The position numbers are program-made. This document shows, one piece after another, positions 8,201-14,200 of a DNA stretch of 64,000 nucleotides. How positions within the stretch are numbered: the first letter of the stretch is position 1; every line of letters begins with the position of its first letter. The stretch is from a virus (lineage: Duplodnaviria; Heunggongvirae; Uroviricota; Caudoviricetes), in IMG/VR virus record IMGVR_UViG_2690316121_000006; one strand, written 5' to 3'.

Positions 8201-11200
8201 ATTTGCTGCAGAATTATTACTGATCCGGCATGGTGTTTCGGACAGAAAAACAATTTCTATTATTCTTTAATAAATAAAGTGAAAGGTAATTAATGATGTT
8301 CAGAAAACTGATATTTCTGCTGTTCTGTGGGCTGGGCATCACTTGTATGCCCCATACTCAGGCGGCAGTTCCCGTGGAAGGAAAGGACTATACCATGCTG
8401 AAGATGCCGGTAGAGGATGCTCCGGCGGTGGTGGAGTTTTTCTCCTTTTACTGTCCGCCCTGTGCAGCCTTCAGCAGTCGTTTTTTTGTCAGTCAGGCAG
8501 TGGACAAAATCCTGCCAGCTGGAGAGAAAGTGGTGAAGTATCACGTCAGCACAATGGGGCCGATGGGACAGGAGCTGACAGAAGCTTGGTCGGTGGCAAA
8601 AGTATTGGGTGTGGAAGACAAAGTGGAGTTACCACTATTTGTGGCAGTACAGGTAAACAGGAACATTACGACAGAAGCCAGTATTCGCCAAGTGTTCATC
8701 GATGCCGGTATTTCGGAAAGGGACTATGATGCAGCAAAAAACAGTATGGCGGTACGTGCCCTTACGGCAAAACAGCAGGAAGCGGCAAGAACTTATGGTG
8801 TAACAGGAACACCTTCTTTCTTCGTCAGGGGAAAATATTTGATGAATAACGGAGCCATACAGCCGTCCAGTGAGCAGGGTTACGGAAAAGCTTTTGCGGA
8901 TGTGGTTAGCGTGTTGCTGAAACGTCAGGAATAAAGGGGACAAAGGGCTGGGATAACGCAGAGTGTTTTTCCGGCGTGTTAGAACGCAAACATCACATTA
9001 GGAATATGACTTGCAGAAATATATCGGTGCTACGGAAGAATGAGCTTCCCGAACCGCCGGGCAGGGCGCAAACCGCTACGCGTGCTGTCACTGTTTTGAG
9101 GACAATGCCATTCGGATAAAACATAGGTCAGTCGTATGGAGCGCGGATTGACTAGCTCGGTGTGTAGTTTTATGCAACGAGAGCACAAGGATAGTGCTAT
9201 GCGCAAAACAAGCAGCGACCTGAGGAACAGGCCCGAAGAGGGGCTGAAGAGATTGTTCTCTAGCGGAGGAAACATCATGCGGCACGATGGATATCGTGGG
9301 CAGTTGAAGAGCGCTTTGCCCGTATGAAAATTTACAAATCAACAATGAGACTGCCAAGAATGACCAAATATATATCTATAGCAATACTGCTTACCAGTCT
9401 ATCCAGCCACGCTGGATCGCTCATGTGTCCGACATCCATTTCTATACAAGGAGATACTACTAACAAGTATGGGCAATGGGTTAATGGAGAGTCCACGACA
9501 AAAACAATGTCGATCTGGGACTGTATCAGAGGAAGCGAGTTTACCTATAAGTACGAGCTCTCTCGAGCTGACAGGATATACATGGGATTAACCAATTACT
9601 CAAACAACGTAAATACCTACTCCAACATACCAGGAAGTAAAAAACCGATAAGTGGCAATTCACAATATATAGCAGAAATTGGATATAACGCTCTCACACT
9701 AAATATGGGATACGCAAAATACGAGAACAACGATGTTCAAGGTGCTGGCATAGTGAGAAAACCAGGTAGCTATCGGCCTAACGTCGATATAAAACTACGC
9801 CCTTTCAGTACAACGGATACATTAGAGGGGACGTTCATCGTAAATCTTGAGGACCAGTGGGCATATAGCGCAGACGACGATACGACCAATCACCAAACTA
9901 ACATTCGTAATAAACTCGTAATTACGTATACTGCTATTAACAACCATGCTGTAAAAGTGAATTTCAGAGACAGCCAATTGTCGTGTATGGCAACTACTGG
10001 AAACACCTGCACAGCAACTACTGCACTAAATGCAGTTAACAGTTCAGATACCGAAACCTTTAACGCCAAACTAACATTCCAAATAGTGTCCACTGGTACG
10101 TATGATGTAGAAATACAAGGTCTGGGAATGTCCAATATACCAATTGGGCAACAAATAGACTACGTGGTCCCTCCCTTTGGAGCAGGGGTTGATGAACCTC
10201 TTACAATGAAAATACGCGGAGATACCGGTAGCGGGATAGTTACGATAAATGCAACAATTACGATATTATAAAGCATAAACCTTACCGCGTAATTGTCCTC
10301 AGATTCCTCAAGTGCCAATGAGCCTGTACATCGATTTGTGTAATTGCTTGATTTTGATACGTTCACTTTCACTATTAACATAGGTTGAATTATAGACAAA
10401 ATAGGTACAGGCTCTGACTAATGAACAAACTAAAACTTCAAAGCCTTTGAAGACTGTAGTGGTTTACTGGATTTGTCCACCTGCACAGAGGTGATACGCT
10501 CATTTCAGAACAACACTGATGCGTCAATGTTTTAGCCCAGAATACTAACGAGAATGCCGCTCAACTGATTGTTGAGCAGAACTATACTGTAGCGGATGAA
10601 GGTTATTACTCTGTTTCAATGCCCGGTTCGCCGGGCGTCGCATAATATGGCCACACTATCTGATACAATAAAACCGAATAAAACATATCTTGAGGCGGTA
10701 CTCCGTACAGCGTTGTTAGGAAAGACAGAAGACGAATACGTTGATTTCTTCCTGTCAGGGCTACGCGGGGGGATTACTGAAAAATCCCCACCTGTACCGC
10801 AGCTATGGCCCATACTGGCCGGAAATTAAAAAATTATTACTGGAACGCGGTTATGGTAATTTCGGTCGTCTCGTTGACCGTGACGTTCGCAAAATTTACC
10901 GTTATGACCGCCCGGCGCTGACGCTCATAGCCGCGACGCTCTACAGCCAGGAGCGTTTTGATAATGGTCAGATATACTCAGCCTGGCATTTACTGCCAGT
11001 GTCTGAAGAGGTTGACGACCAGGACTATGAGTTTGAGTCTTACGATTTGGGAGTTGAAGCCTTAGCACAGGCTGGAGAGAAAACTTGAAAAAGCGATACT
11101 ACACAGTAAAGCATGGGACGCTACGAGCATTACAAGAGTTTGCTGACAAGCATAACGTTGAGGTGCGCAGGGAAGGGGGGAGTAAAGCTCTGCGCATGTA

Positions 11201-14200
11201 CCGTCCGGACGGGAAATGGCGGACGGTCGTCGATTTCAAAACTAACAGCGTTCCCCAGGGCGTCCGCGACCGGGCATTCGAAGAATGGGAGCAGATCATC
11301 ATAGATAACGCATTGCTCCTGAATGCTGATTAAGAACTCTCCGGCCTAGGGAGATTAGGCCGGAGATAAATATACTATATAAACTTAGATATAATATCGT
11401 GAATCTGTTGTAGCGGGATATCTTCCATCTTATTCTTAATAAGGGAGCGGTTAGATGCTGTCAGTGAAGGCCATTTTGTTTTCCAGGCTAGATATGCTCG
11501 CCATGAGTAGCCTGTTTCGTAAGGTTTATTCATATAAGTCATTGAATGTTCAACCGCATGCATGTATTTTTTCTCAAAGTTGGTTCCTTTTACTTCAAAT
11601 AAACCACCGAAATAAATAAGCCATTTTGCCAGGTGTTCATACTGCTCCCATGCGCCAGACTCTTTAGTAAGTTCTATTTTTTTATCTATTATATCACAAA
11701 AAACATTTAATACCTTTTCATCATTCCAGCTATATCCAGATGATGAAATGGAGGAAATGATATGATAAAAAGAATCCTCTAGCTTCAAGAACTCTATTTT
11801 ATACTCTCTTCCGTTTTTTATTACCGATTTGATTGAGTGCCTCAATTTGTCTTTTATTTTTTTTGCTTCTGGAATTTTATCGTTAAGTTTTCTAAAGAAA
11901 TCAGACACCTCTGTTTTATCTATAACCCTAATCCCAAAGCAGGAAAAATAGTAATCTTTAATAGGTTGCAATAGTTCCCCTCGGGAAATAAGGAAAATAT
12001 TGGAGGACATTACGTTGTCCCGTGAAAATACCTTATATTCATTTATAATAGCCTTGAGGTTCGCGTCACTTAGAGAATAGCCAAGGATAACAATAGTGTT
12101 TTCATGTAGAACTGTGCTTAGTTTATTAGAAAAGTAAGAATTACCATTTATAAATCTGAAATAATCCTCGCTAGTAACAACCATGTCTGATGGGGAGTCT
12201 ATAGAACCGTGAACATGGTAGACTTTAACCTCACAATTATATTTTGGAATTGGCAGGCCGGGGGTGATTGTACACGTTCGGTTCTCTCCAGCCAGTTTTT
12301 CTGCTAACTTGTCATAATTTGTCGTAATTACTTTGAATGTGTTTTCTTTGAAAAAGTCTTGAATATATTCAGTTGATGGATCAAGTTCGATTGAGGCTAT
12401 GATTTTCTCAATCTCCTGGTAAATATTTTTCCCCGAAAGTATAAATTTTAGTGCAATAACCTGAGCAGCCTCTTCAAGGCTAAGGTCTTTTGCTTTCCCA
12501 GCAGGAAATAATTCCTCTTTGAGTGAGTCACCATCCTTCAATAAACCGCACAGTTGCTCCAATAAAGATTGCCAACTTGGGGCTTTATCATCAGAAACAG
12601 CCTTTGAAAATCCAGTGCCTGTAAGAAAGCACAGCCTATGTGTAGCCGCTGCATAGGCAATTTCTATATACTCGCTCATTACTTACTCCATTTACTTATA
12701 GTTCTACGGAGAAGTATACCCTAATGCATTGACGTTTATAGATAATTTCCGTTTCCTGTTAATACTCCCTTAGGCACTTGTTTTTGCGCCAGTGTTTGAG
12801 TGCCGCGAATTATGTTAATCAGAGGACTTAGTAACGATGATTCCTGGCGGGCATCAACTTCCTCTGCCATTGCCCTGATGTAGTCTGCGCTTGCAACGTT
12901 GTTGTATTCCGTTGCGAAGCAGCATAACAACGTCAGAACGTGCTCTGTCGTTATTTCGCTCCAGTTGATGTTGAAAAACTCATCGCCTTTTTTGTCGTGT
13001 TCGGAATCGAAGATGCTTTGGTGGAGGATGTATTTGCCGGATTCCTTGCGCGGTAACTTGATCGCTTTCTGGCGTTCCAGCTCCTTGTAAATCTGCATTG
13101 CTTCAATTAGTATCGGCCTGCCGTTCATGAAGGGATCGCGCAACCTTACACGCTGGCCAACTCGACCGGTAATAAAGCTGTTTTCCTCTTCCACCAGCAC
13201 GATAAACCCCTTTTCCTCTTTCTCACGCAATTCACGAAGCAGCTGAAGTTCCATATCGCGGCGGCGTTCAGGGTAGCTGGTCCGCTCAGCCATTATCAGC
13301 TCGTTGTTGATCCATGCAGCAGTCATTGACGCCGGTTTGCCGACGCTCATTGAAACAACGCATATTTTCTTATCCATAGCGCCCCTAAAAAAAAGAAAAG
13401 CCACCAGCGGCGGCTTAGCAATACAACTGAAGGTAGCGCCCGGTACTCAGACTGTGCCGTCCATGGAATATTTGAAAAGGGATCCATCCGTACCGGGCAT
13501 GTGATGATTCTGACTGAAGTCACTTGTCAGTTGTCAATTATTTCAGATTAAAAATAATATATTTATTAGTGCATGATGTTTGCCATCTCATAGGCGTCAG
13601 CCAGCAACTCCATCTCTGACTAGTTCAGCAAGGTGAATTCTTTCTTGCCTCCAACCACACCATCGGCATGAACAGGGACCAGCCAGGGGTATTTTTCTCT
13701 TACTTCAGCCGGTGCTGCATGCTGGTGGTGCCATCTACAAAGGGGCAATTGCTTTTTGTGACAACCCGGCGCGGTACGACCGGAGATATGGTGCAGAGAT
13801 ACCTCTTCAGATATTACTCCATGCATGTAGCAGGCAATGCAGGGGAGAGCGCCAAGAGCATTGGCGATGCTCCGTTCCTCCGCTGTCGGTGTTCGCCCCT
13901 TCAAGCCACGAGATTTTATCTTTACCGCACTTTTCCGCGTTTTGTCGGCTGGTGGGCGCTCTTTCTGTTTAGCGATACGGCGGTCGATAGAATCCCGCAT
14001 TTTCTGATATTGAGATTCTCGCCAGGCGGCGTCAGCAAACTTTTCCCGTTGCCGAGCGATCGCTCGTTCTCTGGCTGCCTTCTGCCACTCGCGGCGCTGT
14101 TCAAGTTTTTGTTCGATTGTTTTCATATGGCAAAAAAAAGGCGGCCTAATGGCCGCCAATGATGTCAAGGAGTGAAGTAATGGCAACGTCTTCGTAGTTG

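Follow-up and report, generated by a model that had tools for sequence, protein, structure and literature searches.

What are the two small overlapping genes that converge on a SIR2 gene in the P1-like phage-plasmid IMGVR_UViG_2690316121_000006, and why is the first of them split between two reading frames at a run of six Gs? We analyzed a 64-kb stretch of this element (64,000 nucleotides, called the window throughout; all coordinates are positions in it). An earlier note on the same DNA had found no known family for either product and had suggested a toxin-antitoxin-like or sensor/regulator pair associated with the SIR2 gene, with the frameshift being a sequencing error, a pseudogene or a slipped-strand switch. 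We found that the gene pair is the already known ulx-lxc operon of P1-type phage-plasmids, here with an intact lxc and an inactivated ulx. We estimate a probability of roughly 70% that ulx is a genuine pseudogene that followed the loss of darB, the gene for the client protein of Ulx. The locus comprises the following features.

10647 to 11088, plus strand: ulx pseudogene, a homologue of P1 ulx frameshifted at the six-G run (from BLAST, P1 annotation, alignments and phrog_1629).
10647 to 10829, plus strand: the frame open from the ulx start, translating to 60 amino acids (41 Ulx residues, Gly42 and 18 out-of-frame residues) before a TAA.
10767 to 10772, plus strand: the six-G (G6) tract, which in relatives is GGGCG (5 nucleotides) and here has C>G plus one G.
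11085 to 11333, plus strand: lxc (= bof), 82-amino-acid C1 co-repressor, intact; phrog_2160.

Much of the layout described in the earlier note was confirmed. The six Gs at 10767-10772 separate an open reading frame (ORF) of 77 amino acids at 10596-10829 from an open frame at 10741-11088 that lies one base apart, and removing one G or adding two would fuse them. The second frame lacks an in-frame ATG, its only alternative starts being TTG at 10741, GTG at 10999 and TTG at 11047. Downstream of the fused frame are the 82-amino-acid ORF (11085-11333), which is basic (isoelectric point, pI, 9.6), and the convergent SIR2 gene; the repaired upstream protein is acidic (pI 5.1). The four-nucleotide overlap between the genes, read earlier as ATGA, is TTGA, formed by the TTG start codon of lxc and the TGA stop codon of ulx. 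The fusion also had to be shortened from about 165 amino acids beginning at 10596 to 146 beginning at ATG 10647, because P1 homology begins only at 10621; the 17 codons from 10596 are unrelated inserted DNA. ATG 10596 was considered as the start and rejected, being outside the P1 homology and in a frame that is closed by a stop in the Escherichia albertii (E. albertii) relatives. As encoded, the product is 60 amino acids long. The G6 run is unremarkable in itself, as the window has five runs of at least six Gs where about seven are expected from base composition.

Identification of the two genes came only from PHROGs profiles and DNA similarity. With 10400-11400 as a megablast query, positions 10621-11333 matched ulx-lxc of P1, P7, SJ46, RCS47 and other P1-like phages at 96.6-98% DNA identity, and the operon was likewise found in about 700 P1-like plasmids. 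The matching stretch of the P1 record contains ulx (441 bp, 146 amino acids), lxc (249 bp, 82 amino acids, 'modulator of C1 action') and three sigma-70 lxc promoters within ulx. Repaired Ulx matched phrog_1629, 'Ulx-like anti-restriction', its residues 3-142 aligning with positions 1-137 of the 138-position profile (E = 2.2e-63), and the 82-amino-acid protein matched phrog_2160 over positions 1-82 of 82 (E = 7.8e-57), showing that both products, earlier assigned to no known family, match P1 proteins over their full length. Scans of Pfam, NCBIfam and PADLOC gave no match for repaired Ulx or Lxc, and a sequence search of the PDB gave no significant match for either.

Gene order was compared with P1 as well. 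The lxc gene follows ulx with the same overlap as in P1, but darB is reduced to a 43-codon remnant 8.2 kb away. The backbone, prt-[darB]-ulx-lxc-[res/mod slot]-mat-ref-cra-cre, follows the arrangement of P1, for which the order cre-cra-ref-mat-res-mod-lxc-ulx-darB-prt has been given (PMC10695390). The backbone genes used for this comparison, and the gene for the partner of Lxc, are listed here.

486 to 2207, minus strand: portal gene (prt), P1-type backbone.
12736 to 13404: mat, P1-type backbone.
13620 to 14231: ref, P1-type backbone.
14724 to 15755: cre, P1-type backbone.
16910 to 17761, plus strand: c1 repressor gene, Lxc's partner, present and intact, collinear with C1 of CP040069.

Compared with P1 ulx (P1_gp010, YP_006478; 'upstream of lxc'), which belongs to the Dar antirestriction system, the window copy is alike in its site 5' of and overlapping lxc, its repaired length of 146 amino acids, its ~97% DNA identity, its full-length match to phrog_1629 and its internal lxc promoters. 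It differs by the frameshift at codon 42-43 (GGGCG>GGGGGG), by four amino acid changes that occur in none of a panel of 75 relatives' sequences, and by having a fimbrial operon instead of darB as its upstream neighbor. The lxc gene resembles P1 lxc/bof (P1_gp009, YP_006477; co-repressor, 'modulator' of C1) in its 82 amino acids, in its TTG start and TTGA overlap, and in sharing its element with c1. No difference between the two was detected at the protein level, and loss of translational coupling to ulx would be what sets the window copy apart.

The frameshift allele was next compared across relatives. Where the window reads GCGGGGGGATT, the sequence is GCGGGCGATT in P1, SJ46, three P1-like plasmids from Escherichia coli (E. 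coli) and the E. albertii plasmid CP070291. Relative to GGGCG, the window allele has thus exchanged C for G and gained a further G. In a gapped pattern search of IMG/VR, all 85 of 85 contigs had a 5-nucleotide tract (GGGCG in 82, one-base variants in 3), as did both of the two loci in GTDB. A 70-nucleotide query centered on the tract had no identical match among 678 records of complete E. coli genomes and 680 plasmids in PLSDB, where the best identity was 97.1%, corresponding to one mismatch and one gap, and no allele of five to nine Gs was present in 241 million metagenome records. A homopolymer at this site is conserved in no relative, and no length variants occurred in any collection searched. 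Homologues encode Ulx in a single frame. These comparisons show the G6 run to be a private lesion.

With no conserved homopolymer and no length polymorphism, an evolved slipped-strand switch and a programmed frameshift are therefore ruled out. A phase-variable contingency locus was rejected on finding the 5-nucleotide GGGCG or a one-base variant in relatives and no G5 to G9 allele, and programmed ribosomal frameshifting was rejected on finding no conserved shift site and single-frame homologues. Of the options raised in the earlier note, the slipped-strand switch is thus unsupported, and a pseudogene or a sequencing error is left.

The known role of Ulx in P1 suggests why its gene might be dispensable here. 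Ulx is a head protein, detected when P1 virions were purified, and 'aids DarB localization' (PMC9024508); Ulx, DarB and DdrB make up a branch of the six-protein Dar system against EcoB/EcoK type I restriction (PMC12810830). It has also been stated that 'ulx enhances incorporation of darB', and both ulx and lxc were scored as non-essential in P1 (PMC10695390). The functions of Ulx and Lxc are cited here from later papers summarizing earlier work. In P1 and the E. coli plasmids examined, darB is 6.8 kb long and ends 33 nucleotides before ulx. The client DarB is gone from the element analyzed here, where the region upstream of ulx consists of a remnant and an insert.

2283 to 2414, plus strand: darB remnant, the first 43 codons and then a stop, left of a gene for a 2255-amino-acid antirestriction protein.
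2419 to 10620, plus strand: insert in place of darB, 8.2 kb, a chaperone-usher fimbrial operon whose right end meets the ulx side at 10620/10621.
3826 to 4338, in the insert: fimbrial major subunit.
4412 to 6853, in the insert: usher, PefC/AfrB-type.
6846 to 7538, in the insert: chaperone.
7501 to 8049, in the insert: FedE-like subunit.
8293 to 8934, in the insert: DsbA-like gene.
9324 to 10271, in the insert: 315-amino-acid ORF with no family match.

There is no other match to darB in the 64-kb window. The same swap with the same junction was found in E. albertii P1-like plasmids at 91-93% identity (e.g. NZ_CP030784, NZ_CP126910, NZ_CP070291), and also in two metagenome contigs, with L104 being 99% identical over 7579-11331. 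A GC-rich inverted repeat, GCCCGGTTCGCCGGGC, occupies 10621-10640, exactly where the right end of the fimbrial insert joins the P1 backbone and just 5' of ulx; in P1 this repeat follows the darB stop codon.

Beyond the frameshift, ulx carries changes in the protein that lxc does not. Repaired Ulx has R42G, R48H, P119S and E135G, each of which is found in 0 of the 75 panel sequences. Ulx is identical in 63 of these 75, and intact members differ by no more than two residues. The window Lxc is the panel consensus protein, with only synonymous changes in its gene. We propose that replacement of darB by the fimbrial operon left Ulx without a client, and that ulx would then have decayed under relaxed selection, the C>G change plus one added G creating the G6 run and cutting the product to 60 amino acids while three further panel-absent changes accumulated beside R42G. 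In this model, lxc would still be transcribed from three promoters inside ulx, independent of ulx translation. Three points of this model are inferences: a causal role of darB loss in the relaxation, undisturbed expression of lxc, and a genuine extra G as opposed to an assembly error. A real lesion is favored because the change is compound, homopolymer errors do not pervade the assembly, four panel-absent changes are present in Ulx and the DarB client is gone.

Relatives that have lost darB show ulx in several states.

L104: intact, protein identical to the consensus.
CP070291: intact, two changes.
L103: intact, four changes, with P119S in common with the window.
Window: frameshift plus four changes.
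L101: ATG>ACG plus a 148-bp deletion.
Four E. albertii plasmids: both lesions of L101 and, in addition, a CAG>TAG stop.

Set in this order, the states form a gradient of ulx decay across the darB-less group. By contrast, of 73 loci that have the darB 3' end directly upstream, 69 carry an intact ulx. The darB-less E. albertii plasmids and the gut-metagenome contig ORLY01000187 have the same fimbrial operon for darB and the same junction 5' of ulx as the window, and they keep lxc intact, except for CP126910, in which only a 138-bp coding sequence is annotated. Among them, CP070291 and ORLY01000187 have an intact ulx, whereas in the others it is destroyed by different lesions (ACG start, 148-bp deletion, TAG); none has the G6 run. 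Unlike in the window, their cargo 3' of lxc is not SIR2.

A second component of the DarB branch is also reduced in this group. In E. albertii NZ_CP030784 (L105, 5804-7447) and NZ_CP070291 (L107, 5508-7151), only residues 448-995 are left of ddrB, which encodes the other DarB-loading factor, with hdf, darA and ddrA intact. In the darB-less E. albertii plasmids, the components of the DarB branch thus appear to be decaying together. Better founded than the idea of a second role for Ulx, discussed below, is the reading that a clade of P1-like phage-plasmids (E. albertii and relatives) has exchanged its entire DarB branch for a fimbrial operon, with darB replaced, ddrB truncated and ulx in decay, giving up phage antirestriction to gain a host-adhesion trait. 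Most simply, the darB-less clade is in the course of dismantling the DarB branch, and the window ulx is one instance. The parallel decay of ulx and ddrB fits the experimental placement of Ulx and DdrB in the DarB branch, and would offer a tidy natural example of genes serving one client protein that decay after that client is lost. We also observed that gldA adjoins the ddrB remnant in CP030784.

Several observations weigh against the proposed decay of ulx after darB loss. Three darB-less relatives (L104, CP070291, L103) have an intact ulx; losing darB is therefore neither quickly nor inevitably fatal to the gene, and a second role of Ulx is conceivable. A broken ulx also occurs in 4 of the 73 loci with a darB 3' end upstream. 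Only two independent ulx inactivations are present in the darB-less group, which makes the association between darB loss and ulx decay suggestive and not statistically firm. P119S is not strictly private, as it also occurs in L103, which is outside the 75-sequence panel. Compared with the closest relative, L104, substitution density is 29/kb in ulx, 20/kb in lxc and 3-15/kb in flanking DNA, with the lxc excess being all synonymous. Because lxc is likewise raised, this density is no clean measure of relaxed selection, and recombination is an alternative that could explain part of the divergence of ulx and lxc from L104. Finally, the one added G may be an artifact of assembly or base calling, the true allele being G5.

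Such an error would mean that the true sequence has five Gs (CGC GGG GGA TTA) and that ulx is intact, encoding 146 amino acids with R42G. We regard this main alternative as unlikely, though several features of the data speak for it: a single-base length change in a homopolymer is a classic type of error, the G6 allele is unique among ~1,400 related records, several intergenic homopolymers differ in length from the reference CP040069, and of the window's five G6 runs, three sit where the G runs of compared sequences are interrupted. The lesion is compound, however, combining C>G with an added G, and is no simple length miscall. Across ~44 kb aligned to E. coli plasmid NZ_CP040069 there was no other coding homopolymer frameshift, and the only other gene-breaking indel was an 11-bp deletion in cra, which is no homopolymer slip. 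Together with a premature stop in ref, that deletion shows that neighboring accessory genes carry lesions of a non-homopolymer kind. With three more panel-absent changes in ulx and darB gone, a real inactivation is what would be expected.

Very little probability attaches to the idea that Ulx has a DarB-independent second role for which the newly arisen G6 run serves as a crude mutational on/off toggle, although such a role, if true, would explain why ulx is intact in several darB-less elements. Slightly fainter still is the case for a recoding or contingency switch, in which G6 to G5 slippage, or +1 ribosomal or transcriptional slippage, restores Ulx in a subpopulation. The frame would indeed be restored by G5 or G8, the tract is in the 5' third of ulx, and intact ulx in some darB-less relatives hints at residual function, but relatives have neither a homopolymer nor a length variant here, leaving nothing conserved for selection to shape. 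A run of six Gs is also shorter than typical contingency tracts, the tract is followed by no +1 frameshift stimulator (stop or rare codon), the next codon being ATT, and the known client DarB is absent. A toxin-antitoxin or sensor/regulator pair tied to the convergent SIR2 gene is scarcely credible: small acidic (pI 5.1) and basic (pI 9.6) proteins are encoded by overlapping genes beside a defense-type gene, in an arrangement of ulx, lxc and SIR2 that recurs in many plasmids, but both are P1 backbone genes with experimental roles unrelated to SIR2, both were scored non-essential in P1 (PMC10695390), the lack of any Pfam, NCBIfam or PADLOC match leaves no recognizable toxin or antitoxin domain, and lxc is followed by varied neighbors, with at least eight cargo clusters and no SIR2 gene in L103 and L104.

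Lxc (Bof; the gene was formerly bof) is a C1 co-repressor that binds the C1-operator complex, raises C1 binding, tightens repression and blocks the antirepressor Coi, and its promoters are free of C1 control (PMC8546580). Lxc overexpression also serves as a tool in infection assays (PMC10695390, PMC8546580). Homologues of the three P1 promoters, mapped from the P1 annotation, are all found inside ulx.

10690 to 10716, plus strand: P3lxc homologue, 24 of 27 bases as in P1.
10834 to 10862, plus strand: P2lxc homologue, 28 of 29 bases as in P1.
11012 to 11040, plus strand: P1lxc homologue, 29 of 29 bases as in P1.

A consensus promoter scan found none inside ulx at threshold, and these assignments come from P1 homology only. 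A GGAG motif is present 5' of the lxc TTG start. Translation of ulx now ends at TAA 10827-10829, 256 nucleotides upstream of lxc, so that translational coupling of lxc to ulx would be lost. The three promoters, the GGAG motif and the perfectly conserved Lxc protein suggest that lxc remains functional and that ulx DNA may be partly kept as the lxc promoter region.

The region 3' of lxc was then compared among relatives to place the SIR2 gene in context.

11338 to 11366, called on the minus strand: GC-rich, terminator-like hairpin between the convergent lxc and SIR2 genes.
11375 to 12679, minus strand: SIR2_2-domain gene, 434 amino acids, convergent on lxc and located in the P1 res/mod slot; context only.

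The slot between lxc and mat contains res/mod in P1 and a RelA/SpoT gene in SJ46, while E. albertii plasmids have a GNAT gene or an ORF of 399 bp there. The slot contents of 63 comparable sequences, the window included, form at least eight different clusters, and co-occurrence with SIR2, a check proposed in the earlier note, was seen in 10 of the 63. L103 and L104, the two closest relatives of the window, have other cargo in the slot. Because slot cargo varies among relatives, the lxc-mat slot is a cargo hotspot beside a ulx-lxc backbone, and the adjacency to SIR2 is incidental. The SIR2_2 gene, which occupies the slot as a single gene, is common in E. coli P1-like plasmids. Its protein has the candidate system PDC-S25 as its best PADLOC match. 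The similarity to ThsA, Dsr1 and Dsr2 is confined to the SIR2 domain, and its C-terminal half has no family match.

For annotation, the 77- and 115-amino-acid ORFs should be merged as 'ulx, pseudogene (frameshift)' and the 82-amino-acid ORF named 'lxc/bof, C1 co-repressor', and neither ulx nor lxc should be counted as a defense-associated or toxin-antitoxin gene beside SIR2. As a discovery the pair carries little weight, being a textbook P1 operon with a private inactivating lesion.

Other differences from compared sequences were observed elsewhere in the window. Further G6 runs lie at 11175-11180 in lxc and 2301-2306 in the darB remnant, positions at which the G runs of compared sequences are interrupted. 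In lxc the run results from a synonymous GGA>GGG change that is seen in 1 of 75 panel members. These extra G6 runs could reflect coincidence, mutational bias or base-calling bias. The cra gene (listed as c8 in PMC10695390; 14373-14673, minus strand) is split into ORFs of 43 and 54 amino acids by the 11-bp deletion, which lies at ~14552 in comparison with CP040069. The ref gene, encoding a RecA-dependent nuclease (13620-14126, minus strand), specifies 168 amino acids compared to 186 in the reference, ending 18 codons early, so that the C-terminal KSEMELLADAYEMANIMH is missing, as are ~15 positions at the end of the Pfam domain. The Dam-family methyltransferase gene dmt (45799-48063, minus strand) encodes 754 amino acids compared to 1095 in CP040069, with the difference lying in an in-frame stretch of ~340 residues.

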